Positions 3,500 to 27,000 of a stretch of 33,005 nt of DNA are shown here, one piece after another (position 1 is the stretch's first letter; each line of letters starts with the position of its first letter). A model generated the notes under the pieces. It searched no databases. It saw only the letters and a list, made by a program, of their open reading frames with translations, and was not told where the DNA came from. Origin of the DNA: a virus; the UHGV virus genome UHGV-0112485; one strand, written 5' to 3'. Position numbers and translations under genes: made by a program.

Positions 3500-3726
3500 T
3501 GGCTGATTCTATGGACCTCGTACAGCAGCGCGTTGAAGAAGAACGCCAGAGGCACATCCACACCGCCCGCAGTAAAGCGCCGGGCGTTTCCCGTGTCTTG
3601 TGCATTGACTGCGACGCACCAATACCGCCAGCCCGCCGCCGCGCTATTCCTGGCGTGCAGTGCTGCATCACCTGTCAGGAAATCGCAGAGCTGAAAGGCA
3701 AACACTACAATGGGGGTGCTGTATGA
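3499..3726 (+). CDS. TraR/DksA-family C4 zinc-finger protein
   Basis: 75 aa with CIDC-x-D...CCITC, a C-x2-C...C-x2-C arrangement. This is the phage/conjugative TraR-like family. Translationally coupled to both neighbours. Confidence 0.7.
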   Translation: MADSMDLVQQRVEEERQRHIHTARSKAPGVSRVLCIDCDAPIPPARRRAIPGVQCCITCQEIAELKGKHYNGGAV

Positions 3727-4610
3727 GCACCATCCTGAAATGGGCGGGCAATAAGACCGCCGTCATGCATGAGCTGAAAAAGCATCTGCCTGCAGGCCTG
3801 CGACTGGTTGAACCTTTCGCGGGTTCCTGCGCTGTGATGATGGCGACAGAGTATCCTCATTATCTTGTCGCGGATATTAATTCAGACCTGATTAATCTTT
3901 ATAAGCAGATTGCATTTAACTGCGAGAAATTTATTACTAACGCTAAAGGGTTCTTTGCCAGCACTAATAGCGAAACCTCTTATTACAATATTCGTCAGGA
4001 TTTTAATCATTCATCTGAAACTACTGATTTCTGGAAAGCTGTATTTTTCCTTTATCTTAATCGCCACTGTTATCGTGGATTGTGCCGTTATAACAGGAAA
4101 GGTGAGTTTAACGTTCCATATGGGAATTATAAAAAACCATATTTCCCGGAAGACGAAATCAGAGCATTTGCAGAGAAAGCAAAACGCGCCACCTTCATTT
4201 GTGCCAGCTATGAGGAAACTTTAGCGATGGTCAAAGTAGGTGATGTGATTTATTGCGACCCACCTTATGACGGAACATTTACCGATTATCACACAGATGG
4301 TTTCAATGAGCTTGAACAGCGTCGCCTGGCGACGACTCTTGATGTACTGGCATCAGCAGGCCATCAGGTTGTTGTGTCGAACAGTGAAACCGAGCTGACG
4401 AACGCGATTTACCAGAATTTTGCCAGCCACCGCATTAACGCAAAACGCAGTATGGGCGTTGCCGGTGGTGATGGTAAGTCTGCAACTGAAATTATCGCTG
4501 TTTCTCAACCTCTGATCTGGTCCGGGTTTGATCTGGCAGCGTATCCAGTCGTGAGTGCGTCTTACGAAACTTTCCAAAGAGAGTATTTGTGTGAGCCATC
4601 ACGACGTTAA
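3723..4610 (+). CDS. dam: DNA adenine methyltransferase (Dam / D12 class N6-A MTase)
   Basis: The N-terminus ILKWAGNK is the AdoMet motif and the DPPY catalytic motif is present. I chose the ATG at 3723, which overlaps the TraR stop as ATGA. The ORF track's 3660 start is an upstream extension. Confidence 0.8.
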
Positions 4611-6996
4611 AAACTACGGCGGTGCAGATGATGCCGCCGCTGCTTTTGTCTGGAATGCCCCGAAAAAAGCGGTTAACCCGTATGTGGACCCGGCGGAAGT
4701 TGCGCCGGTGTCTGCGCTTTCAAACCTGATCGCTCTCTACGCCAGCGACAACGAGCAGGAGCAGCTGCGCCGTGAGGCGATGAGCGATGAGGTCTGGGAA
4801 CGCTATTTCTACAATGAAGCCCGTGATCCTGTTCAGCGGGAAATGGAGCAGGACCGGCTGATCAGCCGTGCCAAAATGGCCCGCGAGCAGCAGCGGTTTA
4901 ATCCCGATCTGGTGATTCTGGCAGACGTAAGCGCTGAACCATCACATATCAGCAAGCCACTGCTTGAGCGCATTAAATATTTCGAGGGCCTGGGAAAGCC
5001 AAAGGCATATTCCCGCTATCTACGTGAAACCATCAGGCCGTGCCTTGAACGCCTGGAGCGCGTGCGTGCAAGCCAGGTTTCTGCGTCATTCCGGTTTATG
5101 GCGAGCCACGACGGGCTGGAGGGCCTGCTGGTTCTGCCGGAAATGAACCAGGATCAGGTTAAGCGGTTATCTACCCTGGTGGCGGCACACATGAGCATGT
5201 GTCTGGATGCTGCCTGCGGTGAGCTGCTTGCGGATGAAGACGTTACGCCGGAAGAAATCCGCCGGTCATGGGAAAGGGTGGCCGCTGAGGCCATGCGCCT
5301 TGATGTTATCCCGCCTGCCTTCGAGCGGCTGCGCCGTAAAAAGCACCGCCGTAACCCGGTACCATACGAACTTATTCCGGGTTCGCTTGCCCGTATGCTC
5401 TGTGCTGACTGGTGGTATCGCAAGCTGTGGCAGATGCGGTGTGAATGGCGGGAAGAACAGCTGCGCGCCGTCTGCCTGGTTAACAAAAAGGCGTCCCCGT
5501 ATGTCAGCTATGAGGCCGTGATCCATAAACGCGAACAGCGCCGCAAATCGCTGGAGTTCTTCCGCTCGCATGAGCTGACCAATGAGCATGGCGATACGCT
5601 GGATATGGAAGACGTGGTAAACGCCAGTAGCAGCAATCCGGCGCACCGTCGTAATGAAATGATGGCCTGCGTTAAGGGGCTGGAGTTAATCGCGGAAATG
5701 AGGGGTGACTGCGCGGTGTTCTATACCATCACCTGCCCGTCGCGCTTCCATGCCACCCTCAACAACGGCAGACCTAATCCGAAGTGGACAAGCGGCACAG
5801 TCCGGCAGAGCAGTGACTATCTGGTGCATACGTTCGCCGCTTTCCGCAAGGCGATGCACAAAGCGGGGCTGCGCTGGTATGGCGTCCGCGTTGCTGAGCC
5901 ACACCATGACGGCACCGTGCACTGGCACCTGCTGTGCTTCATGCGCAAAAAAGACCGCAAATCCATCACCGCGCTGCTGCGTAAATTTGCCATCCGTGAG
6001 GACCGCGAGGAGCTGGGCAACAATACCGGCCCGCGATTTAAGTCTGAGCTGATCAACCCGCGCAAGGGTACGCCTACCAGCTACATCGCGAAGTACATCA
6101 GTAAGAACATCGACGGGCGTGGCCTGGCTAACGAAATCAGCAAAGAAACCGGCAGATCACTGCGGGACAATGCCGAACATGTCAATGCCTGGGCTTCGCT
6201 GCATCGAGTCCAGCAATTCCGCTTTTTCGGTATACCGGGCCGCCAGGCTTATCGCGAGCTGCGTTTGCTGGCAGGCCAGGCCGCGCGGCAGCAGGCCGAT
6301 AAAAAAGCAGGTGCGCCGGTACTGGATAACCCGCGTCTGGATGCCGTGCTGGCGGCAGCCGATGCCGGGTGTTTTGCCACCTACATCATGAAACAGGGCG
6401 GCGTACTGGTTCCGCGTAAACATCACCTGGTCCGCACGGCTTATGAACTCAATGACGAGCCATCAGCCTATGGCGATCACGGCATCCGTATTTATGGCAT
6501 CTGGTCCCCGATTGTTGAGGGCCGGATTTGCACGCATGCGATGAAGTGGAAAATGGTTCGTAAGGCCGTTGACGTTCAGGAGGCGCCAGCCGACCAGGGC
6601 GCTTGCGCCCCTTGGACTCGTGGCAATAACTGTCCCCCTGTGGAAAAAATGAACGAAAACGGGGCCGTAAGCGGACAGGATTTAACGGATGTTGCGGGTA
6701 TGGATGAGCGGGAGCTGCAGGAATATCTCCATAGCATGAGCAAAAAGGAGCTGAGGGAGCTAAACGCACGGCTTCGCATGGTTAAGCCTAAGCGCCGGAA
6801 AGGATACAGGCAGGATGTGGATAATCAGCAGCGCCTGCAGCTGGAGTATGAACTTAAATCGAGAGGCTTTGATGGTTCGGAGGCGGAGATCGATCTGCTT
6901 CTGCGCGGTGGCAGTATTCCATCCGGTGCCGGTCTGCGTGTCTTTTACCGGAACCAAAGGCTGCAGGAAGATGATAAATGGCGCCAGTGGTACTGA
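4591..6996 (+). CDS. A: Replication initiation protein A (rolling-circle nickase, P2 gpA family)
   Basis: About 800 aa. The N-terminal [10 protein letters not shown] motif resembles the P2 A N-terminus, and Tyr-rich nickase motifs are present. GTG 4591 is preferred as the start (RBS AAGAGAG 7 nt upstream). GTG 4555 is the alternative. Confidence 0.8.
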
Positions 6997-7182: not shown

Positions 7183-7371
7183 ATGCAGGACTATCTTTTG
7201 GAGTCGTTAAAACTCCAGCGTATTGATTTTTTTATCAAGCTTGTAGCGGCTAGTGAGTGCAGCGATGAAGAGAAGCGACTTGCTATCCAGTGGGTTTCTG
7301 AGCTGACTGATGAATTAATGGCGAAAATTCGTAGCCATGAGTACAGCCGGTCAATGGATGTTTCCAGTTAG
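7183..7371 (+). CDS. Small SOS-inducible protein, candidate Tum antirepressor N-terminal part
   Basis: 62 aa beginning at the ATG with a strong SD (AGGAGGGGAA-ATG). The ORF track's 7093 start lies inside the LexA boxes. It sits directly downstream of the LexA-controlled promoter. Confidence 0.45.
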   Translation: MQDYLLESLKLQRIDFFIKLVAASECSDEEKRLAIQWVSELTDELMAKIRSHEYSRSMDVSS

Positions 7372-7384
7372 GGGGATGAGCTCC

Positions 7385-7618
7385 ATGCGTGTCGAAATAA
7401 TGATTGATAAAGAGCAGAAAATTAGCCAGGCGACACTGGAAGCACTCGAAACCGAGCTTTACCGCAACCTGATCCCTTTATATCCCAAGATGGCGATCCG
7501 CATTCGCAAAGGCAGTGCCAACGGTATCGAGTTGACCGGCTTAAAACTTGATGAGGATAAGCAGCGGGTAATGGAAATTATGCAGCAGGTATGGGAAGAC
7601 GACAGCTGGCTGCATTAA
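7385..7618 (+). CDS. DinI-family protein (Tum C-terminal-like)
   Basis: MRVEIMIDKEQKIS...DEDKQRVMEIMQQVWEDDSW aligns with E. coli DinI as I recall it (MRIEVTIAKT...KEDKQRISEILQETWES). It is in a different frame from the preceding ORF. The 186 Tum C-terminal domain is DinI-like. Confidence 0.65.
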   Translation: MRVEIMIDKEQKISQATLEALETELYRNLIPLYPKMAIRIRKGSANGIELTGLKLDEDKQRVMEIMQQVWEDDSWLH

Positions 7619-7693
7619 CAAAACGTTGCAGGCGATAAAACTGGTTTTTACCGCCTGCAAGGTTGAACAACGAGCAAGGCGAGGCGTTAGGCT

Positions 7694-7951
7694 ATGGGGT
7701 CTAAAGACAGTAATTATCAGGTTATTTATCGCTATGAGCCGCTGCCGAAGTTTGTTTCGGGTGGTTGGGTGCTTTTTCAGCGCCCAAAATCCTGCGGCGG
7801 CGGGTTCTGGCTGGGTAAAACCTATGATGGTGTTTTTATGCTTGAACTTGTTCGCCCGGTTCCCTTGGATGAGGGCATTAAGTACATCATCCTTTCATCG
7901 CGAGTAGCTGAAAACTTTATGGATTTTGACGAGGATTTCAGGCTAACCTGA
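7694..7951 (+). CDS. Hypothetical protein (85 aa)
   Basis: A clean ORF between the tum module and cos, followed by a terminator. Weak RBS. Confidence 0.35.
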   Translation: MGSKDSNYQVIYRYEPLPKFVSGGWVLFQRPKSCGGGFWLGKTYDGVFMLELVRPVPLDEGIKYIILSSRVAENFMDFDEDFRLT

Positions 7952-8018
7952 AAAAAAAGAGAGTGCATGACTATGCCGCATGAATCTGCATGATCGTTTG
8001 AGGATCGTTTTAGCTTCG

Positions 8019-8043
8019 GCCCGCCAGTTCTGGCGGGCTTTTT
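8019..8043 (+). terminator. Rho-independent terminator
   Basis: GCCCGCCAG-tt-CTGGCGGGC stem followed by TTTTT. Confidence 0.55.
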
Positions 8044-8087
8044 CATATCTCATGCAGGTGCATGAAAACCACTACACAAAGCGGGCA

Positions 8088-8106
8088 GGCGTGGCGGGGA
8101 TACGAG
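8088..8106. other. Candidate cos (cohesive end) site
   Basis: GGCGTGGCGGGGATACGAG. Its first 13 nt match the 19-nt cohesive ends of 186 and P2 (GGCG(T/A)GGCGGGGAAAGCA-) as I recall them. Its position between the A/tum region and the Q-P packaging genes is as expected. Confidence 0.45.
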
Positions 8107-8188
8107 CGCGCGCTAGCTGGTTTGATAGCGAAACGCTGTTTGGTTGTTCTAATTGTCGAGGGTTATGTCACGTTGTACAGAAGGGGTT

Positions 8189-8216
8189 TTGACTTGGTGA
8201 ACAGTTGCAGTATCAT
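8189..8216 (+). promoter_or_regulatory. Sigma70 promoter for the cargo operon
   Basis: -35 TTGACT (8189-8194), a 16-nt spacer and -10 TATCAT (8211-8216). RBS AAGGAT lies before ATG 8240. Confidence 0.45.
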
Positions 8217-8239
8217 AAAAAGAAAAAAGGATATTTCCT

Positions 8240-8971
8240 ATGTACAAACTATGGGTTTTGTGGGGTTGTGTTTTTGTTCTTCTCCTAATCGTTATGGGAT
8301 GCGTTCCGTTTTCACCATTTGAAAAATGGTGGTTTACGGTAAACTTTATGTCAAATGTTAATATTATTCGTGCTTTTTTATCAGTTTTGATATTGTTTTT
8401 AATAGCTTATATTTTATTAATTGGTGCTTTTCATCAAAGATACTCGTTGAGGTTGGAACAGTTAAGTTTTGGCGGTATTAATATACTGCTTAATAAATCA
8501 GATCTTCTTTTTAAAAAAAGCGTAAAAAATTATTTGGATACTAAACGCTCATTGTTTAAGTTCGACCCAAATTATGATTCAATTGAAGAGGTGTTGAACT
8601 CATACTATGAATGCTATAAATTCATTAAAGATGAAATGAAGTTATTGGATATTACTAAAAGGCGCGATAAAAAATTGTATTCGCTAGCCAATGAAATGTT
8701 GAAAACATTAAATCGTTTTTTGACGAAACATCAAAATAACTATAGAAGATGGCATAAATTTATTTCAGATAATGATAAGGTGATTACAAAGGACAAGAAT
8801 TATAATGGAGAATTTGTAACATTGTCCTATCATTTGACGCCTATTAGTACTATCCAATCACATTATTATCATTTCAATGAAATATTGGAAGGCTTTAAAG
8901 AGGTTAATGATTTTTTCACTGATAAGGTTGTTAATGAGTTTAATATAAATGTTGATAAGTGGGGTATATGA
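8240..8971 (+). CDS. Cargo protein A: two N-terminal transmembrane helices plus a ~175-aa Lys-rich helical soluble domain, unknown function. Candidate defence effector.
   Basis: 243 aa. Hydrophobic segments LWVLWGCVFVLLLIVMGCV and IRAFLSVLILFLIAYILLIGAF. About 30% GC. Own promoter. Its stop overlaps the next gene's start (ATGATG/TGA). Confidence 0.7.
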   Translation: MYKLWVLWGCVFVLLLIVMGCVPFSPFEKWWFTVNFMSNVNIIRAFLSVLILFLIAYILLIGAFHQRYSLRLEQLSFGGINILLNKSDLLFKKSVKNYLDTKRSLFKFDPNYDSIEEVLNSYYECYKFIKDEMKLLDITKRRDKKLYSLANEMLKTLNRFLTKHQNNYRRWHKFISDNDKVITKDKNYNGEFVTLSYHLTPISTIQSHYYHFNEILEGFKEVNDFFTDKVVNEFNINVDKWGI

Positions 8972-9588
8972 TGCATAAGACGTTTCTGAGTTATCATCAT
9001 GCAAATGAGCAAGATCTCAAAGATGAGATAATTAAATTGTTTGGTGGTGATTCATTTATTGATAAGTCAGTAAGCGATGGTGATATAAGCACCACTAATT
9101 CTGATGAAACAATAATGAGAACTATCCGTGAGGATTTCTTAGAAGACTCGACGGTTACTGTCGTTCTTATCGGAACCGAGACAAAACAACGCCCATTTGT
9201 AAACTCTGAGATTCAAGCGTCACTCTGGGGAAGTGGTTATAATGGGTTAGTTGGTGTTATCAGGGACGAAATCTACGATAATGTGTTTACTCCAGCGGTA
9301 TGTGCAGATCCGTCATGTGGATGTTCTATCACCCTAAGAACTCCTGGTTTTGGATATGATTTTTATTTACCTTATTTGGTTAGGGAAAATCACGTTTATA
9401 AAAAAACAGTCCCACATTATAATGATACAGATGTGTACTGTGCATTGGTGAAATACTCTCTGTTTATTAAAAAACCTGAATATTACATCGACCAAGCATT
9501 TAATAAGCGCAAGACGATGGTACCTGCTGCGAAAAAAAACTCATCGGACGTTCCTGCGATTCGCAGTTCATCAATTTTTAATTGGTAG
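8968..9588 (+). CDS. Cargo protein B: TIR-like (DUF1863/ThsB-like) N-terminal domain plus a Cys-containing C-terminal domain. Candidate defence sensor/NADase.
   Basis: 206 aa from MMHKTFLSYHHANEQDLKDEI, which resembles the TIR-like 'vFiSYsh.D' box. VTVVLIGTETKQRPFVNSEIQ resembles the conserved S..W...E strand/helix with the putative catalytic Glu. AT-rich and translationally coupled to protein A. Confidence 0.6.
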   Translation: MMHKTFLSYHHANEQDLKDEIIKLFGGDSFIDKSVSDGDISTTNSDETIMRTIREDFLEDSTVTVVLIGTETKQRPFVNSEIQASLWGSGYNGLVGVIRDEIYDNVFTPAVCADPSCGCSITLRTPGFGYDFYLPYLVRENHVYKKTVPHYNDTDVYCALVKYSLFIKKPEYYIDQAFNKRKTMVPAAKKNSSDVPAIRSSSIFNW

Positions 9589-9594
9589 TATAAA

Positions 9595-9615
9595 GGTGCA
9601 TAATTATTATGCACC
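9595..9615. terminator. Perfect 21-bp palindrome, a bidirectional terminator between convergent genes
   Basis: GGTGCATAAT-T-ATTATGCACC. It sits between the cargo operon (+) and portal Q (-), flanked by AT-rich sequence. Confidence 0.5.
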
Positions 9616-9631
9616 TATTCCTTGCGTTACT

Positions 9632-10654
9632 TTAGAATGAATATTCCGTAAAACGAATGATATCATCATCCAACCATTCGTTTAACTCCTGCAGACGCTT
9701 CTGCAAAGGCATAATTTCATTGCGGACAAAGACGCGGCTAGCCTTTTCCACATCCCCAAAGCCGCCGGTATTATTTGGAATGATGCCCATCATCTGCGGC
9801 GGCACGCGGTGTGCTGCCATCATGTCATCGCGGCTCACGTTCTTGATGTTCAAAAATTCATCTTTCGCCGCGACCTCTGACAGCGGGATGATCTGGATGC
9901 CGTCCTTTTTACCGTTGGGCGAATACATAAACAGGTTGCGGAAGTTGCCCGGTCCCTTGGCGCTTTTCATGGCCTGGCGGATATTGTTCACGTCTTCCTG
10001 ATTCTGCGCTGCGTCGGTCATGTACATGATGAAACCGGCGTGACTGCCGTTGATGTAATACTTACGGCGAAACAGCGTAGCCGACTCGTTGAGCAGTGTT
10101 GAAGGGATCGCGGAGAGGTAGCCGGGAAGCCCGTAGATTTCCTGGTTAATGTCCGGCTCCATCAGGTGAAAGATGCTACCTTTGGTGAACTCATAAGGCT
10201 GGGTGGTCATGCCGTACTGCACGAACCAGTAAGTATCGAGGTCAATCCCGCGCCGGGTGTACTTCGCCAGTGATGGCTCCAGAGACAGGACGCCGCCCAG
10301 CCTGTTCGTCCGTTTTTCCAGATAGGCGTTACCGAACACAAGGTAGTCCTGGACGAAACGTGCAAAAGCCTGCTGGCTGAGCAGGCGGTGGGGGATGTAG
10401 GTGCTGCTGAGAATGTCACGCTTAACGGCAATCGGTGAGCTGTGATGTACAGCGGCGCGATAGGTCCGCGCCAGCCCGTCAAAACTCACCGGCGGCTCAT
10501 ACCAGCGGTCCATTTGCACACATTCTACGTAGTCCAGAAGTTCGCGGCGGTCCAGTACCGGAATGGGATCGCCAAAGCTGAACGCCTGGGTAGTTGCTGC
10601 ATCATTGGGTTGTACGTCGGGTGGCATCACATCCTGTGCGGTATTCTCAGTCAT
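9632..10654 (-). CDS. Q: Portal protein (P2 gpQ family)
   Basis: 340 aa (P2 Q is 344). In the conserved position, transcribed leftward together with P. Confidence 0.9.
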   Translation of the reverse strand: MTENTAQDVMPPDVQPNDAATTQAFSFGDPIPVLDRRELLDYVECVQMDRWYEPPVSFDGLARTYRAAVHHSSPIAVKRDILSSTYIPHRLLSQQAFARFVQDYLVFGNAYLEKRTNRLGGVLSLEPSLAKYTRRGIDLDTYWFVQYGMTTQPYEFTKGSIFHLMEPDINQEIYGLPGYLSAIPSTLLNESATLFRRKYYINGSHAGFIMYMTDAAQNQEDVNNIRQAMKSAKGPGNFRNLFMYSPNGKKDGIQIIPLSEVAAKDEFLNIKNVSRDDMMAAHRVPPQMMGIIPNNTGGFGDVEKASRVFVRNEIMPLQKRLQELNEWLDDDIIRFTEYSF

Positions 10655-12417
10655 TAAAAAATCTCCACAATGTTGCTGGTATTGGCGGCTTCGCCCTGCA
10701 GCGGTTCGTTAAACAGTGCGTGCATCGTTGCCCAGGCCAAATCGGCGTGGCTGGCTTCTTCGCTGCGGCTGGCTTCGTAGGTAGGGCGGTTGCCGCTGGC
10801 GGTGGTGGCGCGGCGGATAGCCATAAATGACTGCGCAATGTCGGTATGCCCGGCGTCAAACTCCAGACGGCGGTGGCTGATAATGTCGTATGCCTTGAGC
10901 ACCAGGGCGTTTTTGACGTTGGGGTTATAGACAAACTCCCGCACGGCAGGGAAAAAGCCTTTTACGTTTTCATAAACACCGTGACCGACGCCGGTGGAGT
11001 CAATGCCGATGTAGGTCACGTTATACTGCTGAGTCAGTTTGCGGATGGCCTCTGCCTGGGCGCGGAAGTCCATTCCGCGCCACTGGTGACGCTCAAGGAT
11101 GCGGAACTTACCGCCGGGCACCGTCGGCGGGGCAATGACTACGCAGCCAGCGCTGTCACCGTTCTGGGTACCTTTCGCCGGGTCATAGCCGATCCAGACT
11201 TCGCGCCAGCCGAACGGACGCAGGGCCAGCGCCTGAAAGTCTTCCCAGACTTCCCAGCTGTCCACCATGCAGGCCTGCAGGTCAGCCAGTGGGAAAACGG
11301 AGGCGAGATCGTCGATGAACTCACACATCAGCAGGTTCTGGTACTCGTCGGGGCTGTACTCCAGGCGCAGCTGGTCGAGGTCGAACAGGTTGCAGCCACC
11401 GCGCACGGCGTCCTCCACCGTCACGATCTGTCTGAACTGACCGTCAGCGCAAAGCAGACCGGCAGCAAGGGCTGAGTGGGTCAGGTCGATATCAACGCGA
11501 TCAGCTTTTGCCCGCCCGCGATTGAACAGGGCGCCGGACCAGAACGGGTAAGCGCTGTGCGTCAGGCTGGAAGGCGTAGAGAAATAGGTCTGGCGCCATT
11601 TCTTGTGCAGCGCCATGCCGGAGGCGACTTTACGTAGCTCCTGAAATTTCGGGATCCAGAAATACTCATCAAGATACAGGTTGCCGTGGTAACTCTGTGC
11701 GGTGCGGGCGTTGGTCCCGAGAAAATACAGCGTGGCGCCGTTTGGCAGCACCATGGGGTCGCCTTTTAATTCCACGTCGACTTCTTTGGCAAACTCGATG
11801 ATGTACTGCTTAAAAACATGCGCCTGGGCTTTACTGGCTGACAGGAAAATCTGGTTTCGCCCTGTCATCAGGGCGTCCATCAGCGCTTCACGCGCGAAAT
11901 AATACGTAGCGCCGATCTGGCGCGATTTAAGCACGTTGCGGATGCGGTGTTTAATTCCTGCTTCCCACCAGTGGCGCTGATATTCAAACATTCCGTTGCG
12001 GAAAATTTCTTCCAGCTTTTCGATCTGTTCGTCAGTAAACAGGTTCTTTTCTGGTGTCTTGCGGGGGCCGCGGTTGCGGTTTTGCACGTTGGGGTTAAGG
12101 TCCGCCTCATTACCGCCGTTGTTAAATTTACCGATGCGGGCGTGGCGCTCGGACTGGCGCGCCAGCAGGTCTATTTCTTTAAAGTCTTTCCCTTCCTTGT
12201 GCTCCTTCATGATGAGCTGGCAATAGCGGGCGGCAGTGGTGAGCTGCATCTGATCGAGTGGGCCATATTCGCCCCACTTGTCGCGCTTTTTCCAGCTGTG
12301 AACGGTTGCAACTTTTTCGCCCAGCATTTCAGCAATGCGGGCTACGCGGTATCCCTGAAAATACAGCAGTAATGCCTGCCTGCGGGGATCGAGGTCTGCG
12401 GGGGTCATCGTTTCCAT
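10654..12417 (-). CDS. P: Terminase large (ATPase) subunit (P2 gpP family)
   Basis: 587 aa (P2 P is 590). Walker A-like KSRQIGAT. Its stop overlaps the Q start. Confidence 0.9.
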   Translation of the reverse strand: METMTPADLDPRRQALLLYFQGYRVARIAEMLGEKVATVHSWKKRDKWGEYGPLDQMQLTTAARYCQLIMKEHKEGKDFKEIDLLARQSERHARIGKFNNGGNEADLNPNVQNRNRGPRKTPEKNLFTDEQIEKLEEIFRNGMFEYQRHWWEAGIKHRIRNVLKSRQIGATYYFAREALMDALMTGRNQIFLSASKAQAHVFKQYIIEFAKEVDVELKGDPMVLPNGATLYFLGTNARTAQSYHGNLYLDEYFWIPKFQELRKVASGMALHKKWRQTYFSTPSSLTHSAYPFWSGALFNRGRAKADRVDIDLTHSALAAGLLCADGQFRQIVTVEDAVRGGCNLFDLDQLRLEYSPDEYQNLLMCEFIDDLASVFPLADLQACMVDSWEVWEDFQALALRPFGWREVWIGYDPAKGTQNGDSAGCVVIAPPTVPGGKFRILERHQWRGMDFRAQAEAIRKLTQQYNVTYIGIDSTGVGHGVYENVKGFFPAVREFVYNPNVKNALVLKAYDIISHRRLEFDAGHTDIAQSFMAIRRATTASGNRPTYEASRSEEASHADLAWATMHALFNEPLQGEAANTSNIVEIF

Positions 12418-20277: not shown

Positions 20278-20872
20278 CAGTCTGTTACCGCCGGGGTCGT
20301 CTGCGCTGGAGCGCAGGCTGGCGCAAGCCTGTTCAGGTATCAGTGATTTAAACGTACCACTGCGTGACCTGTGGAACCCGTGGAAATGCCCGGCAAAGTT
20401 TCTGCCGTATCTGGCCTGGGCTTTCTCCGTTGACCGATGGGAGGAAACCTGGACAGAAACCGCTAAGCGGCAGGCGGTCAGCGATGCTTTCTGGATCCAT
20501 CAGCGCAAAGGTACGGTGGCGGCAGTTAAGCGGGTGATCGAGGGGCTGGGTTACTCAATGACCCTTGAGGAATGGTGGGAGGTGGCCGACCCCGCCGGGA
20601 CGTTTCGTCTTGAGATCGATCTGAATGAAATCGGCATCACGGAGCCGATGATTTACGAGCTTGAGCGGATTATTGGCGATGCGAAGCCAGTCAGTCGCCA
20701 TATATCGCAGTTGACGTTATCGGCATCAACTTCTGGCCCGGCAAATATTGGTGCCGCCGTGTTTGATGGTGATGTGATTACCGTTTATCCGCCGGGATAT
20801 AAGCCGGATGACAGTATTTATTACGATGCCACTGCGCATTACGACGAAAATTATCAATATTCCGGGGACTGA
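20270..20872 (+). CDS. I: Baseplate protein gpI
   Basis: 200 aa from MTSSLLPPGSSALE (P2 I begins MSDSRLLPTGSSPLE). Overlaps the J stop. Confidence 0.8.
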   Translation: MTSSLLPPGSSALERRLAQACSGISDLNVPLRDLWNPWKCPAKFLPYLAWAFSVDRWEETWTETAKRQAVSDAFWIHQRKGTVAAVKRVIEGLGYSMTLEEWWEVADPAGTFRLEIDLNEIGITEPMIYELERIIGDAKPVSRHISQLTLSASTSGPANIGAAVFDGDVITVYPPGYKPDDSIYYDATAHYDENYQYSGD

Positions 20873-20873
20873 T

Positions 20874-23759
20874 ATGTCTTTAATCAGCGAAACAGCACAG
20901 TGGGAAAGCGACATTCCGTTAATTAAGCGCGGCGACAAAGTGGCCGGGGGAAATGATGGTCTGGTGAACGTTCAGACCAGTATTCTCGCCGACCGCACAG
21001 CCTACCTGAGAGATCAGCTTAATGCCTACAATGGCCTGTTAAAATCGGGCGAATTACCATTTACCAGTGCGGCGGCAGCGCAGGCCGCAATTGCTGCCGG
21101 GAAAATACCGGAAGGAGGCGTATTCTCCATCCGGTCAACCAACCCTGCGCATTGGGTGGAAGAGGCGAAGAATACAAACGGGGCGGTGACGCTGACCGGG
21201 AAAGCTATTCTGTCAGATTTAATGCAGATGGTCACGGTCAGAGCGTCCGGTAACGACCCCGACGGAACGGCGGCGGGTTTATCCTCGACAACGGCAGAAC
21301 AGCATTTTCTGGTGATTAATCCAGAAGATAAAACATCACCGTTCACGGTGTATAAAAATAATAACGGTGTGGCGGAAAGGGTATCCGATATTATTGGATA
21401 TTCCACAATACAGGGGTTTATTGATGCCGGGTTTATTCCTGAATATCTTGACCCAGCGAGCGGTTATGTCGCTACTTTCCGCGACCCGGTCACGCGTCGC
21501 GCTGCTATTTCCATTACGGTAAAAGGGGAGGTTATCGCCCCGCTCCTGAAGATTGAAGATGGAGTTATTTCACATGAAAACCTTGCGCTTGATTTAAAAG
21601 CGCTGGTACCGACCACGCTCGACCCGGCAACCGGTTATGTTATGGCCTGGATGGACCCGAAATCCCGCCGCTGTGCCCTGCGTGTGAGCGTGTCCGGTGA
21701 AGTCGAAATTCCTCTGATTAAGCTGGGTAACGGCACGATCTCGCTGGAGAAACTGACGCCAGAGGTGCAGGGGTTAATGCCGGTGACACTCGACCCGGCA
21801 AGCGGTTTTGTCCTCGCCTGGGTTGACCCGAAAACCAAACGCTGCGCACTGCGGGTGAAACAGAATGGCGTGGTTGAAATCCCGCTGCTGTCCATTGGTA
21901 AAAACGTGATTACCCTGGACAACCTGACCGAGGAACTGAAAAGCGCCGTTCTGCCGTTTGCACAGGACGTGGTTGATGTTCCACCTGATGCTGTACGCGC
22001 GGTGCTGGCTGATGTTACCGCACGGACGAATGATGCGGATGGTTCTGGCTGGGCGGCGCTGTCACCGCGAGCCTGTCGCGCGCTGTACGGGGTAAACCAT
22101 ACCGGTACAGAGGTTGAATATCGTCGCGCGTTTGGCCTGAAAATCGCCGGGAAAGCACAGGGTACCCCATTTAACCCCGGCTCTCTGGCTTCCCTGCGTC
22201 GTCGCGGGCGGCTGACCAGTACGACCATTGTCACGCCGTCCGGCCAGTTTGTGGCGGGCGATTACTACAGCTATGAGGCGTACAACACCAATTCCAGCGT
22301 GTCAGAGAAAACGCCAGGCATCTGGAACGGAATGCAGGTCTATCTCGGTGATCTGCTTGTATACGATGGCACCGGGTGGAATATCCAGCGCTCCCCAGGC
22401 TCCGGCGCGCCGCGTAAAAACGATACCTGGTATGAAGTCACCGCGCCGGGCGTGTTTGCGGGTATGACACTGGCCGCCGGGGATAAACTCCTTTTTCTCA
22501 CTCTCCAGACGGCAGGGGGCGGTTTTTTGCAGCCGCAGTTTGCTGCCGTTAGTGCCGGGGCTGACCTGCTTTTTTACGCCGGTGAATTTAATCCGTCGGA
22601 GGGGATGCCGTCTCGTCCTCTGCAAAATGTCATCTGGCAGGCGTCCGCAGGGGGCGTGGCTGGTACAGAGAATTTTCGCGCCGGTGACTATGCCCTGTTT
22701 GACGGTAATGCATGGGTGATGATTGCCAATGAAGCCCCTGAGCAGGTTCCAGACGGGAAAAGCATCAGCCTGCGGTGTACCGCCAGTGCTGACGAATGGG
22801 AGTTTCGGCGCGTGGATAAGTCAGCCGCTGCCGTCGGTATTCGCCTGACGTCGCAGGTGGCCTCTGCGATGAAAACCGGGCTGGGTAAAAAGCTGTTGCT
22901 CATCGGTGACTCGATGTTCGGCAGCGGAACATCGGGCAGCACCATTATCGCCGCCACTAACCGCACCGGGGAGGTGCGCTCTTACGGTGGCTCCACTTCT
23001 GATCAGGTGCTGGGCATGTTTAAGCAGGAGGTACTCTCCTGGGGAGACCGCTGGGCGGGCCAGGTGATTGCGGTCTGGCACGGTCAGAATAACCAGCCGA
23101 AAACCGATGTTAACGCCTCGCAAATCCGTGAAGCGTCTTTGCAGATTGCGGCACTGGCCGGTGCGCGTGATATCCGCTGTTTGTTCCTGACCATCATGGG
23201 ACAACGTGAGGCCAGCTGGAACGGCGAGCGACTGGTGTTTCCCCAGCATGAAAACCAGTTTGCGGAAACAGGATACCTGTATGAGCTGACTGAGTGGTAC
23301 CGGCGCATTCTGCCGGGCCGTCATGCTGTGGTGTACGAAATTATGCTATCGGCTGCGACGGATGCCATCGACCCGACGCATCCGGGCATGACTGAAAAGC
23401 AGGTGGCGGCACGATACGGTGTGTTGCCCTGGTCATTCTTCAATAACGCGGTGCTGCCTGGGGCGATGACAACATCCGACATTCACTATGTGGGTACATG
23501 GAGCGCGTCCGGCCTGCCGTCCGGCGGCAATCACGCCGATTATTATCTGCGGATTGCAGGCGGCACCGTGGGAAATGTTCTGGTGAATAACGGCGGTACA
23601 TGGTCAGAGGTGGCGATTGATATCACCCACATGAGCCAGGCAGGAGGGCGGGCGCTGGCTTATGGCGGGCCGGGTTTCAGCCTGGGTGACGGGTACAAAT
23701 CCATTCCGGCACGTGACGGTATCGCCGGAATTCTGATGAACAATTATTTTTTTAAATGA
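20874..23759 (+). CDS. Large tail fibre/tailspike-like protein with 3x57-aa tandem repeats and an internal SGNH-hydrolase (esterase/deacetylase) domain
   Basis: 961 aa from the ATG 1 nt after the I stop. The N-terminus WESDIPLIKRGDKVAGG..NVQTSILADRTAYLRDQL is a prophage tail-fibre N-terminal-type motif. Three repeats of LDPA(S/T)G(Y/F)V..(F/W)(R/M/V)DP..(R/K)R.A(I/L).(I/V)... follow. SGNH blocks are present: LLLIGDSMFGSG (Ser), YGGSTSD (Gly), VWHGQNN (Asn) and DPTH (Asp/His). Confidence 0.8.
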   Translation: MSLISETAQWESDIPLIKRGDKVAGGNDGLVNVQTSILADRTAYLRDQLNAYNGLLKSGELPFTSAAAAQAAIAAGKIPEGGVFSIRSTNPAHWVEEAKNTNGAVTLTGKAILSDLMQMVTVRASGNDPDGTAAGLSSTTAEQHFLVINPEDKTSPFTVYKNNNGVAERVSDIIGYSTIQGFIDAGFIPEYLDPASGYVATFRDPVTRRAAISITVKGEVIAPLLKIEDGVISHENLALDLKALVPTTLDPATGYVMAWMDPKSRRCALRVSVSGEVEIPLIKLGNGTISLEKLTPEVQGLMPVTLDPASGFVLAWVDPKTKRCALRVKQNGVVEIPLLSIGKNVITLDNLTEELKSAVLPFAQDVVDVPPDAVRAVLADVTARTNDADGSGWAALSPRACRALYGVNHTGTEVEYRRAFGLKIAGKAQGTPFNPGSLASLRRRGRLTSTTIVTPSGQFVAGDYYSYEAYNTNSSVSEKTPGIWNGMQVYLGDLLVYDGTGWNIQRSPGSGAPRKNDTWYEVTAPGVFAGMTLAAGDKLLFLTLQTAGGGFLQPQFAAVSAGADLLFYAGEFNPSEGMPSRPLQNVIWQASAGGVAGTENFRAGDYALFDGNAWVMIANEAPEQVPDGKSISLRCTASADEWEFRRVDKSAAAVGIRLTSQVASAMKTGLGKKLLLIGDSMFGSGTSGSTIIAATNRTGEVRSYGGSTSDQVLGMFKQEVLSWGDRWAGQVIAVWHGQNNQPKTDVNASQIREASLQIAALAGARDIRCLFLTIMGQREASWNGERLVFPQHENQFAETGYLYELTEWYRRILPGRHAVVYEIMLSAATDAIDPTHPGMTEKQVAARYGVLPWSFFNNAVLPGAMTTSDIHYVGTWSASGLPSGGNHADYYLRIAGGTVGNVLVNNGGTWSEVAIDITHMSQAGGRALAYGGPGFSLGDGYKSIPARDGIAGILMNNYFFK
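21446..21960 (+). repeat. Three tandem ~171-bp (57-aa) coding repeats inside the large fibre gene
   Basis: Units start near 21446, 21618 and 21788 (CTCGACCCGGCAA(C/G)CGGTT(A/T)TGT...). The units have diverged, but the repeat is clear at both protein and DNA level. Confidence 0.6.
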
Positions 23760-23766
23760 GGTAACT

Positions 23767-24603
23767 ATGGGCCTGCTTAATGAACTCATTGGCGCAAATT
23801 TCACTGACCCGCGACTGCCGATTATTCCGGACTATCCTGGCCTGACGCTCGGATCGCTGGCATTAATGGATGTCTCAGAAATTCCGGCCGATTTTGATTT
23901 TTCGGGCTTTGGGAAAAATATCCCCCTGAATAATCTGGCAAGCAAAGAAGCTGCCACCCTGACAGGGAAAACAAAAGCGGAGCTGGAATTTAGCTGGAAT
24001 AACACGCTGATCACCACGGGTGCCACGCCGGAGGCGAAGTTTGAACGCACGCCGCGCGGCGGTGTTCACGGGATTGTATCGCTGGTTAACCAGACGCTGG
24101 GACACCGTGGCCGGTTTACCTGTCCGGGTATCATGCCGTACATCGCTGAGCACCAGAACGATCATAAATTTGCCGTGTTTGCGCACTATCAGGTCACGCG
24201 GGTGGGAAGTGGCACACCGGCAACCCATACCACGGAAATGCTGATTGCGACGCAGGTTTCCCCTTCATCGAACCGTTTGATTATGGGGCGTTTGCCTAAC
24301 GCGGTATCAGCTGGCCCGGCGCTGTTCAGTCTGCAATCGGACAAAAATGGCAATGATTTCACAGGCAGTATGTATTACCAGGATTTACCGGTATGGGGGG
24401 CGGCGTCGGGATTTAGTTCCCTGGTGAATAATGCCTGTAAGTCCTATGTGCTTTACCGCCTGCACCTTGTGGATATTGACGCATCAGGGATGTCATTTGC
24501 TGAAATCGCAGCAACCGAACAGCAGGTATTCAGCGCCAACTTTGGCGAAGGCGGCAAGTATGCCGGTGACAGTATTCCAACCTCGCCGGCAGCGCTGCCG
24601 TAA
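23767..24603 (+). CDS. Unknown 278-aa protein between the two fibre genes (possible adhesin tip or fibre accessory protein)
   Basis: Good RBS (GAGGTAACT-ATG). I recognise no motifs. It does not resemble the P2 gpG chaperone. Confidence 0.65.
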   Translation: MGLLNELIGANFTDPRLPIIPDYPGLTLGSLALMDVSEIPADFDFSGFGKNIPLNNLASKEAATLTGKTKAELEFSWNNTLITTGATPEAKFERTPRGGVHGIVSLVNQTLGHRGRFTCPGIMPYIAEHQNDHKFAVFAHYQVTRVGSGTPATHTTEMLIATQVSPSSNRLIMGRLPNAVSAGPALFSLQSDKNGNDFTGSMYYQDLPVWGAASGFSSLVNNACKSYVLYRLHLVDIDASGMSFAEIAATEQQVFSANFGEGGKYAGDSIPTSPAALP

Positions 24604-24612
24604 GGGGAGAGC

Positions 24613-25689
24613 GTGAGCATGAATTACTATGCCATTCTCACCGATTACGGGGAGGCGGCGTTTACTAAGGCGGTGGCAACCGGTGAGCCTGTGAATTTTG
24701 CAGAAATGGCGGTCGGTGATGGCGCGGGTATCATCCCGCAGCCGGACAGAACGCGCACAGGTCTGGTGAATGAAGTGTATCGCGGCCCGCTTAACCGTGT
24801 AGTCATTGCAGACCAGAGCGCGAGTGTTATCCGCACAGAAATGATAATCCTGCCGCAAACCGGTGGTTTCTGGCTGCGAGAGGCTGCGCTCTATGATGAT
24901 GCCGGGGAGTGCCTGGCGGTAGCCAGTCTCCCGCCAGTGTATAAGCCGCTTCTGGCAGAAGGGGCCGGGCGGTTGCAGGCCATCAATCTGTGGATAGCCG
25001 TCAGCAAAACAGCCGCGGTGGAGCTTAAAACCGATCCAACGGTCATTATTGCCTCGGTGGAGGAGGTTGATCGTGCGAAAAATGAGGCAAAGGATTATGC
25101 CGACAAGATTGCGGGCCAGCTGGATACGGATATACAGCAGGTGATTGCCGATGCGATAACGGCGGCAAAGCGAGATTTCTGGGAAGATGATAACCCGGTG
25201 GGAACCACCCGCTTTTTTAACCAGAACCTCAATCCCAATGAACGCTGGCCGTGGTCCCAATGGGTGTACACCGGCGAAAACAAAACGATCCGCGTCGGAA
25301 AGGCTGACGGTTCGAACGTCGGGCAGAGCGGCGGCAGCGATAACGTCACACTTCAGCAGGCCAACCTGCCCGCCGTTCAGATTGACGTGAGCGGAGAAAC
25401 CAGCGAACAGGGGCAGCAGGAGCTGACGACATCGGGCAACGGAAGGCACCGGCACAGGGCAGGTGACGGCGCGCCGGGGGATACCTGGCGGGACGCCACA
25501 CACGGAACGGATAACCAGAAATATACGGGGTGGAACTATACCGACTATGCAGAAGACCATCAGCATAGCGTCACGATCCCGCCGCACAAACACTCGACCA
25601 GCGGCAAAACAGCCAGCCTCGGCGAAGGTAAATCGTTCAGCGTGGTGGAATCTCACACGCTGCTGATGTGCTGGAGCCGCGTTGCCTGA
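24613..25689 (+). CDS. H: Short tail fibre with P2 gpH-like N-terminal baseplate-attachment domain and an HxH-motif C-terminal domain
   Basis: The N-terminal ~170 aa (MAVGDGAGIIPQPD..TGLVNEVYRG...GGFWLREAALYDDAGECLAVASLPPVYKPLLAEGAGR) aligns with the P2 gpH N-terminus. The C-terminus carries HRHRAGD...HQHSVTIPPHKHSTSG, HxH metal-binding motifs of the kind found in fibre tips. Confidence 0.8.
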   Translation: MSMNYYAILTDYGEAAFTKAVATGEPVNFAEMAVGDGAGIIPQPDRTRTGLVNEVYRGPLNRVVIADQSASVIRTEMIILPQTGGFWLREAALYDDAGECLAVASLPPVYKPLLAEGAGRLQAINLWIAVSKTAAVELKTDPTVIIASVEEVDRAKNEAKDYADKIAGQLDTDIQQVIADAITAAKRDFWEDDNPVGTTRFFNQNLNPNERWPWSQWVYTGENKTIRVGKADGSNVGQSGGSDNVTLQQANLPAVQIDVSGETSEQGQQELTTSGNGRHRHRAGDGAPGDTWRDATHGTDNQKYTGWNYTDYAEDHQHSVTIPPHKHSTSGKTASLGEGKSFSVVESHTLLMCWSRVA

Positions 25690-25827: not shown

Positions 25828-27000
25828 ATGGCGCAAGACTATCACCACGGCGTGCGTGTTGTTGAAGTTAACGAAGGCACCCGCTCTATCACGACGGTGA
25901 GCACGGCGATTGTGGGCATGGTATGCACCGGCGATGATGCCGATGCCTCTGTGTTCCCGCTCAATAAGCCGGTTCTGCTTACCGATGTACTGACCGCCAG
26001 CGGCAAAGCGGGCGAGTCCGGCACGCTGGCCCGCTCACTGGACGCCATCGCCGACCAGGCAAAACCCGTCACCGTTGTGGGGCGTGTTGCCCAGGGCGAA
26101 ACCGAAGCGGAAACCACCTCCAATATTATCGGCGGTGTAACCGCTGACGGTAAGAAAACGGGCATCAAAGCGCTGCTTTCGGCGCAGTCGCAGCTGGGCG
26201 TGAAGCCGCGCATTCTGGGCGTGCCGGGCCATGACACGCAGGCTGTTTCCACTGAGCTGTTAAGCGTGGCGCAGAGCCTGCGCGGCTTTGCGTATCTGTC
26301 TGCCTACGGTTGTAAAACTGTGGAAGAAGCGATTGCCTACCGCGAAAATTTCAGTCAGCGAGAAGGGATGTTGATCTGGCCTGATTTCATCAACTTTGAC
26401 ACGGTGCTGCAGGCGGATGCGACTGCTTACGCCACTGCCCGCGCGCTGGGTCTGCGTGCAAAAATCGACGAGCAGACCGGCTGGCACAAAACCCTTTCTA
26501 ACGTGGGCGTCAACGGCGTAACCGGCTTGTCTGCGGATGTGTTCTGGGATCTGCAGGACCCGGCAACCGATGCCGGACTGCTGAACCAGAACGACGTCAC
26601 CACCTTGATCCGCAAGGATGGTTTCCGCTTCTGGGGTTCCCGCTGCCTCAGCGATGACCCGTTATTCCAGTTTGAAAACTACACCCGTACCGCGCAGGTG
26701 CTGGCAGACACCATGGCGGAGGCGCATATGTGGGCGGTGGACATGCCGCTTAACCCTTCGCTGGCTCGCGACATTATCGAAGGTATCCGTGCCAAAATGC
26801 GCAGCCTGGTAAATCAGGGCTACCTCATCGGCGGTGACTGCTGGATTGATGACAGTGTGAATGACAAAGACACGCTGAAAGCCGGGAAACTCTGGATCGA
26901 CTACGACTATACGCCAGTGCCGCCACTGGAAAACCTGATGCTGCGCCAGCGCATCACTGACCGTTACCTGGTGGATTTCACCACCCGCGTAAGCGCATAA
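25828..27000 (+). CDS. FI: Tail sheath protein (gpFI)
   Basis: 390 aa (P2 FI is 396). The N-terminus [30 protein letters not shown] matches P2 FI. Confidence 0.9.

Follow-up and report, generated by a model that had tools for sequence, protein, structure and literature searches.

A P2/186-like prophage with a probable type VI Thoeris anti-phage cassette at its cos-proximal hotspot

We analysed UHGV virus genome UHGV-0112485, a stretch of 33,005 nucleotides called the window in what follows, in which a short AT-rich segment between a candidate cos site and the portal gene carries two overlapping genes: one for a protein with two transmembrane (TM) helices, here protein A, and one for a TIR protein, here protein B. 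The window is a complete P2/186-like prophage with a guanine-cytosine (GC) content of 55%, and the two genes very probably constitute a type VI Thoeris anti-phage system, in which B is the sensor ThsB and A the effector ThsG, and which the prophage carries at its cos-proximal hotspot. The closest named relative is a validated system of Escherichia coli ACN001. The features of the cassette, in coordinates of the window, are the following.

8114-9669 (about 1.5 kb): swapped AT-rich cargo cassette, delimited by homology breakpoints and GC content
8189-8216, + strand: sigma-70-like promoter candidate, TTGACT-16 nt-TATCAT, agreeing with 10 of 12 consensus positions
8227-8231, + strand: Shine-Dalgarno sequence AAGGA, 8 nt 5' of the thsG ATG, by direct reading
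8240-8971, + strand: thsG-like effector gene, an open reading frame (ORF) for protein A of 243 amino acids (aa), 84% identical to the ACN001 partner
8971-9588, + strand: thsB gene, protein B of 205 aa, or 206 aa from the ATG at 8968, supported by PF08937, the PADLOC ThsB models and Foldseek
9594-9616: perfect palindrome 11+1+11 (arms 9594-9604 and 9606-9616), where thsB and portal gene Q converge

The GC content stays between 0.28 and 0.38 over 8150-9650, and its mean over 8189-9616 is 0.33, against 0.548 for the remaining window; this is the sole strongly AT-rich dip within the 33 kb. The first-pass annotation, made from the letters alone, had described an AT-rich insert in a phage of about 55% GC, with a promoter of its own and two translationally coupled genes, and these descriptions agree with the measurements: the hexamers TTGACT and TATCAT stand 16 nt apart at 8189-8216, and the stop codon TGA of gene A (8969-8971) overlaps the ATG at 8968-8970, which gives the ATGA at 8968-8971. 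Orthologues of B are annotated from the second in-frame ATG, that at 8971 (MHKTF...).

The promoter-like match is the top one of the + strand in the region, but matches of this kind are frequent in AT-rich DNA: 13 are observed for 7.9 expected. The ACN001 orthologue keeps the -35 hexamer, the spacing and the -10 hexamer, which reads TATTAT there, and the ACN001 system was initially cloned with its native promoter (Yirmiya et al., bioRxiv 10.64898/2025.12.03.692087, December 2025). The segment 8189-8216 is presumably active as a promoter in the window. Across the alignment of four loci the GGA core of the Shine-Dalgarno sequence does not vary, and the window and ACN001 share all of AAGGA. At the other end, the palindrome is probably a bidirectional terminator hairpin; it is perfect, as had been claimed, but it is 23 bp long and not 21. 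A hairpin is conserved in position 3' of thsB, with the same stem in ACN001 and with other sequences, followed by T-runs, in the P2-like loci L006 and L002.

By its profile matches and predicted structure, protein B is a ThsB-type TIR protein with Glu80 as its candidate catalytic residue, which is what the first reading of its N-terminus had suggested. It matches the Pfam family ThsB_TIR (PF08937) at 3.8e-14, above the gathering cutoff, several ThsB models of PADLOC, with a ThsB match at 6e-13, and phrog_13658, which covers residues 2-182. An AlphaFold model built with 32 homologues has a predicted local distance difference test score (pLDDT) of 88 and a predicted template modelling score of 0.86, and the closest structures found by Foldseek in the PDB are crystal structures of ThsB (9VYL, 8WCF, 9B7D and 6LHY), before TIR domains of plants and animals. 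The residue Glu80, in the motif VNSEIQ (codon 9208-9210), is invariant in the 32 homologues. Its counterpart in the alignment with Bacillus cereus ThsB (6LHY) is the Glu of the VRYEI motif, the catalytic Glu of that protein.

The same first reading had placed a separate Cys-containing domain at the C-terminus of B. Such a domain is excluded by the ThsB profiles, whose cover extends over residues 2-182, and by the model, which is one compact fold. The TIR domain of the ACN001 protein is delimited as residues 1-184 (Yirmiya et al.). The cysteines are conserved nonetheless: C111, C116, C118 and C157 (window 9301-9441) are invariant or nearly so in the 32 homologues, from both Gram-negative and Gram-positive hosts. 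This four-Cys motif may be a structural metal site; the text that we read of the type VI paper makes no mention of it (Yirmiya et al.).

Protein A has hydrophobic segments at residues 1-29 and 36-68, for which the AlphaFold model (pLDDT 83) gives TM helices at residues 2-21 and 40-64. They are followed by a cytoplasmic part, residues 85-243 approximately, that is a helical domain of the DUF6650 type: the model is all-helical save for one beta-hairpin, and the soluble part contains 21 Lys and 8 Arg, for an isoelectric point (pI) of 9.1. Hydropathy, charge and model thus agree with the initial description of a protein with two TM helices and a Lys-rich helical soluble domain. Searches with A against Pfam, PADLOC, NCBIfam, PHROGs and the PDB sequences yielded nothing significant. 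No Macro, SIR2 or SLOG domain was found in A with Pfam, PADLOC, NCBIfam or PDB searches, in agreement with the earlier remark that it looks like neither Macro nor SIR2; Pfam returned no match to the SLATT family at E up to 1, and none to DUF2270. In view of these missing domain matches, we rejected A as a SLATT (type VII), Macro (type II) or SIR2/SLOG (type I) effector.

A search with the single sequence of A gathers 35 clusters, all from Enterobacterales, and with a profile the family also takes in Acinetobacter and many Bacillota. Precomputed PF20355 (DUF6650) flags, graded "weak", are attached to more than 20 of the remote profile matches (E from 1e-48 to 1e-32), and an exhaustive hidden Markov model search over 1.84 billion representatives yields 328 family members at E <=1e-3. 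The family is marked by the motifs SFGG, DTKRSLF and LTxHQ(N/S)(N/D)YRRW, and residues K102, R103, F106, D113, W171, Q206, Y209 and N223 are invariant across 37 diverse members.

The gene for A does not travel alone. A TIR gene lies beside the A-family gene in each of 37 loci examined, from Enterobacterales, Acinetobacter and many Bacillota, with an Nmad2 gene intervening in one of them; tblastn searches with the B family identified 30 of the TIR partners, and Pfam confirmed the remaining 7, each a ThsB_TIR, a TIR_2 or a TIR-HD fusion. The pairing persists across both gene orders, both orientations and different host phyla, and its settings include P2-like prophages, a Bacillota integrative element, neighbourhoods that resemble defence islands, and loci beside relaxase or bacteriocin-exporter genes. 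Since the partnership survives changes of order, orientation, host phylum and setting, we infer that A and the TIR protein form a functionally coupled pair. In the window, thsG and thsB are adjacent, down to overlapping stop and start codons.

Of the two partners, the sensor has diverged far less: ThsB proteins of Bacillota are still 48-60% identical to B, and their cognate ThsG-like proteins only 25-40% identical to A. The TIR partners also vary among loci L007, L011, L026, L027, L032 and L033, where some operons have two TIR genes (ThsB_TIR and TIR_2) flanking or preceding the thsG-like gene; in L027 the partner is a TIR-HD phosphohydrolase fusion, and L026 is the locus with the Nmad2 gene between thsB and thsG.

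Type VI Thoeris is defined as the association of ThsB with ThsG, an effector with a DUF6650 domain (PF20355) and, "in some cases", N-terminal TM helices (Yirmiya et al.). Three of the validated systems in Table S2 of that paper, those of E. coli S1, E. coli ACN001 and a Gammaproteobacteria scaffold, are described as "DUF6650 and TM"; by the same table, the systems of ACN001 and S1 protect E. coli MG1655 against phage. The ACN001 ThsB printed in Table S1 (IMG 2638504641) is encoded by a TIR gene present in a single copy at NZ_CP007442.1 866091-866708. This gene belongs to the remnant of a P2-like prophage, where it directly follows a gene for a 243-aa hypothetical protein and precedes a portal pseudogene, the whole slot lying between DinI and the portal. 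Protein B is 90% identical to the printed ThsB (155 of 173 residues), or 89% when all 205 aa are compared; protein A is 84% identical to the 243-aa neighbour over 242 of 243 aa; and B is 69% identical to the ThsB of E. coli S1.

The resemblance extends to the DNA: between the cos block and the portal gene, both included, the two sequences are colinear, with an identity of about 81%. The loci agree in their two genes and in the order of these, in the overlap of stop and start codon, and in the slot, DinI-cos-[cargo]-portal of a P2-like prophage, and both conserve the promoter hexamers and the stem of the hairpin. They differ in that the window carries another allele, and carries it in an intact Klebsiella-type, Gegavirus-like prophage, whereas the prophage of ACN001 is a degraded remnant. 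Taken together, protein identity, colinear DNA and conserved control elements indicate that the cassette is an orthologue of a validated, named system. No match to the cassette came up by megablast, either in complete E. coli genomes or in GenBank phages; the allele is too diverged from that of ACN001, and the orthologue was reached through proteins. Its E. coli homologue is present in 42 of 5,426 complete E. coli genomes, ACN001 included.

The first-pass annotation had proposed a candidate defence system of the Thoeris kind, and suspected that the pairing was undescribed. The orthology with the validated ACN001 pair upholds the proposal, and it also settles the suspicion in the negative: the pairing of a TIR protein with a DUF6650 effector is already defined and validated as type VI Thoeris (Yirmiya et al.), and the cassette is no new class of system.

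In ACN001 and related avian-pathogenic E. coli (L009, NZ_CP007442.1 859309-872759), the remnant has lost its head genes, and its portal pseudogene forms a fusion with a tape-measure fragment. The genes thsG and thsB are intact despite this decay, and 99-100% conserved in the 42 genomes; their integrity in a degraded prophage suggests that the cassette is retained by the host.

We now turn to the prophage that carries the cassette in the window, whose main landmarks outside the cassette are listed here.

95-1180, - strand: integrase (window ORF)
1184-1804, - strand: CI repressor (window ORF)
after the CI repressor and before the Dam methylase in the window listing: DUF5347 gene (window ORF)
3660-4610: Dam methylase (window ORF)
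4555-6996: large ORF of 813 aa at the gpA position (window ORF)
7337-7618: DinI (window ORF)
7962-8113 (152 bp): backbone block, left boundary of the cassette, 97% identical to ST15-OXA48phi14.1
8018-8039: early-operon terminator, within the 7962-8113 block (terminator scan)
8088-8106: putative cos site, within the 7962-8113 block
9632-10654, - strand: portal gene Q, right boundary of the hotspot (ORF)
10654-12417, - strand: terminase gene (ORF), with the late genes beyond

The closest phage is Klebsiella phage ST15-OXA48phi14.1 (Gegavirus, Peduoviridae; NC_049454.1), with 94-97% identity in portal and terminase. The backbone is Klebsiella-phage-like; a search of species-representative genomes for exact 40-mer matches came back empty. 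Homology to this phage ends at 8113 and restarts at 9670, two sharp breakpoints that delimit the cassette; the block 7962-8113 is also 75-87% identical to the P2-like loci L002 and L006. In the same slot (L010 3277-4916; NC_049454.1 9099-10738), ST15-OXA48phi14.1 carries an ORF of 70 aa and a TIR-domain protein of 477 aa. The contents of the two slots being different, two distinct TIR-based cargos alternate at identical breakpoints, and the interval between cos and portal is a swap site. The gpA-gpQ cos-proximal region is a known P2 hotspot for variable genes (Rousset et al. 2022, PMC9122126), and the variable genes of the window lie precisely between the ORF at the gpA position and the portal gene gpQ, beside the cos block. 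The early suggestion of horizontally acquired cargo at this hotspot is supported by the breakpoints, by the different, TIR-containing cargo of the closest phage, and by the literature. Another TIR-based cargo of this hotspot, which gives the lysogen protection from lambda, LF82_P8 and P2 (Rousset et al. 2022, PMC9122126), is that of the P2-like phage AC1; compared with the cassette by description only, it differs in having three genes, the TIR gene and more than one gene for a TM protein.

Two other regions of the window deserve mention. Just 5' of the conserved cos block, 7691-7961 is a second small variable slot, with an ORF of 85 aa (7694-7951) that has no Pfam match; its equivalent in ST15-OXA48phi14.1 holds two unrelated genes, gp13 and gp14. 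Farther to the right, two ORFs occupy 23767-25689, flanked by the large late-gene ORF 25828-27000 and by an ORF of 983 aa (20808-23759) that presumably encodes the tail fibre. The ORF of 278 aa has no Pfam match; the other, of 358 aa, bears a Phage_tail_fib domain at its N-terminus, pointing to a second tail-fibre module. The GC content across 23767-25689 is normal.

If the cassette functions as a type VI system, its mode of action can be sketched as follows. ThsB, a TIR enzyme with catalytic residue Glu80, would be activated when another phage infects the lysogen, and would then turn nicotinamide adenine dinucleotide (NAD+) into a messenger of the cyclic ADP-ribose (cADPR) type; this messenger is the isomer 2'cADPR in type VI systems, with less certainty for the present clade. 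ThsG would be anchored in the inner membrane by its two N-terminal helices, its basic helical DUF6650-type domain facing the cytoplasm, and would bind the messenger, probably in positively charged pockets between the protomers of a ring oligomer. It would then damage the membrane, and the infected cell would arrest or die before the invading phage finishes its replication.

Several steps of this scheme are documented for type VI systems by Yirmiya et al. (bioRxiv 10.64898/2025.12.03.692087): the TIR protein alone makes 2'cADPR upon infection; 2'cADPR added to cells arrests those that carry the system, and not those with an empty vector; the sponges Tad1 and MoTad2 overcome the defence; in an AlphaFold 3 model, six ThsG protomers form a tube, with basic pockets between them; and for ThsG proteins with TM helices the authors propose that the membrane is breached. 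By analogy, 2'cADPR is rather likely to be the signal of the window allele. In protein A, the candidate pocket residues would be K102, R103, R169, R170, W171, Y147 and Y209, all invariant or nearly so in the family. The basic domain, with its pI of 9.1 and its invariant K102, R103, R169 and R170, is consistent with the pocket model, and the conserved basic surface rich in Arg, Lys, Trp and Tyr, together with the TM hairpin, fits the model of a hexamer acting on the membrane.

Some observations weigh against this assignment, or against parts of it. Among the five validated type VI systems, three are shown to make 2'cADPR and two yield none that is detectable; the text of the paper does not name these two, nor does it state where ACN001 stands (Yirmiya et al.). 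The oligomerisation of ThsG and the damage to the membrane are predictions, and the anti-phage activity attributed to the window allele comes from the literature on its orthologues. A local hmmscan with Pfam returned no PF20355 match for A or its homologues at E up to 1. It left unreported even the proteins that bear the flag, so that the local copy of Pfam may lack the model, or the precomputed hits may be under threshold; with no direct match, the assignment of A to DUF6650 rests on the annotation of its 84% identical orthologue in the paper and on the "weak" flags. IMG numbers the TIR gene of ACN001 ahead of the effector, whereas on the + strand of the NCBI record the effector comes first; the sole TM neighbour of the ACN001 TIR gene is the orthologue of A. 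Finally, the hairpin at 9594-9616 has a weak T-run, a respect in which it falls short of the terminator first described, and the terminator scan passed over it since a strong T-run is missing.

The rival that comes nearest to the type VI assignment keeps the architecture of ThsB and a TM-bearing ThsG, and changes the signal: the Enterobacterales, or ACN001-like, clade would be a type VI sub-variant that signals with a TIR product other than 2'cADPR. We hold this to be possible but somewhat unlikely. In its favour, a different signal is one of the possibilities raised by the authors for the two systems with no detectable 2'cADPR, and toxicity induced by 2'cADPR is described for the metagenomic systems of Gammaproteobacteria and Bacillus, not for ACN001 or S1 (Yirmiya et al.); moreover, the A family is far from the Pfam DUF6650 core, as its weak flags indicate, and the four-Cys motif is conserved in the ThsB clade. 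However, the TIR of the Gammaproteobacteria scaffold belongs to the same TIR cluster, 2741407742, as those of ACN001 and S1, and cells with the Gammaproteobacteria system are arrested by supplied 2'cADPR; the first explanation given by the authors for the missing messenger is a weak signal, under the limit of detection (Yirmiya et al.). A sharper form of the same conjecture, that the clade formed by the window, ACN001 and S1 makes no detectable 2'cADPR and uses another TIR-derived messenger, strikes us as unlikely. If it were true, the motif C111/C116/C118/C157 of ThsB might contribute to a distinct activation or chemistry, and the clade would count as a Thoeris subtype of its own, distinct in mechanism from the plain members of type VI.

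Other rivals depart further from type VI. There is the possibility that the TIR protein is itself the effector, an NADase that depletes NAD+, with A as membrane-bound sensor or anchor: CBASS, Pycsar, pAgo and Avs systems include TIR domains that act as NADases and effectors, Yirmiya et al. give this caveat for unverified TIR operons, and no catalytic motif can be recognized in A. We consider it very unlikely, given that B is small and stands alone, that its nearest structures are signalling ThsB proteins, and that a type VI TIR by itself accumulates a messenger whose addition arrests system-carrying cells only. The A family is moreover paired with several unrelated TIR families (ThsB_TIR, TIR_2, TIR-HD), as expected of a shared receiver of signals and not of a dedicated sensor. 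A pair of prophage morons with a TIR-like fold and no role in defence, such as superinfection exclusion, lysis control or a toxin-antitoxin, would also sit in an accessory slot, and A is indeed a small membrane protein of unknown biochemistry; but the orthologous pair, once cloned, protects E. coli against phages (Yirmiya et al.), and the pair is also found outside prophages, near McrB-type AAA, Lon_C and HIRAN genes, or beside relaxase or bacteriocin ABC exporter genes, which makes this reading extremely unlikely. As for a variant of type II Thoeris, with a TM-Macro effector and histidine-ADP-ribose (His-ADPR) as signal, it can be set aside almost entirely: the layout is similar, a 2-TM effector followed by ThsB, and B matches the ThsB models of PADLOC, but the fold of A, all-helical except for one beta-hairpin, refutes it, and the TIRs of types V to XI produce no detectable His-ADPR (Yirmiya et al.).

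Comparison with the other named systems places the cassette further. The likeness to type II that was first pointed out holds for the architecture and for nothing beyond it: both are two-gene operons that associate a ThsB TIR with a 2-TM effector (ThsC in the new nomenclature of type II) whose ligand-binding domain is cytoplasmic, but this domain is a Macro domain in type II and a helical DUF6650-type bundle in A. The signals differ as well, type II relying on His-ADPR, which is not detectable with the TIRs of type VI (Yirmiya et al.). Types VII (SLATT, ThsH) and V (DUF2270, ThsF) are alike in principle, since a cyclic ADP-ribose isomer made by a TIR activates a small oligomerising membrane effector; the isomers, however, are canonical cADPR for type VII and 3'cADPR for type V, and A matches neither SLATT nor DUF2270.

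Within type VI, the scaffold systems of Gammaproteobacteria and Bacillus share with the cassette the association of a TIR with a DUF6650 effector. The Gammaproteobacteria system has TM helices in the effector and a TIR in the ACN001 cluster; in the systems of the Bacillus scaffolds, ThsG has no TM helices and the TIRs fall in another cluster. Responsiveness to 2'cADPR is described for these scaffold systems, and not explicitly for the ACN001/S1 clade.

With the assignment of the cassette to type VI Thoeris, an intact and probably inducible Klebsiella-type P2-like prophage joins the carriers of this type. The cassette also illustrates swapping at the cos-proximal hotspot, where the closest phage has a different TIR cargo between the same breakpoints. 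Its value lies in providing a further natural allele with which to study the messenger of the clade with TM-bearing ThsG; the allele is also useful for learning how ThsG acts on the membrane, and what effect Thoeris carried by prophages has on phage therapy directed at Klebsiella and other Enterobacterales.

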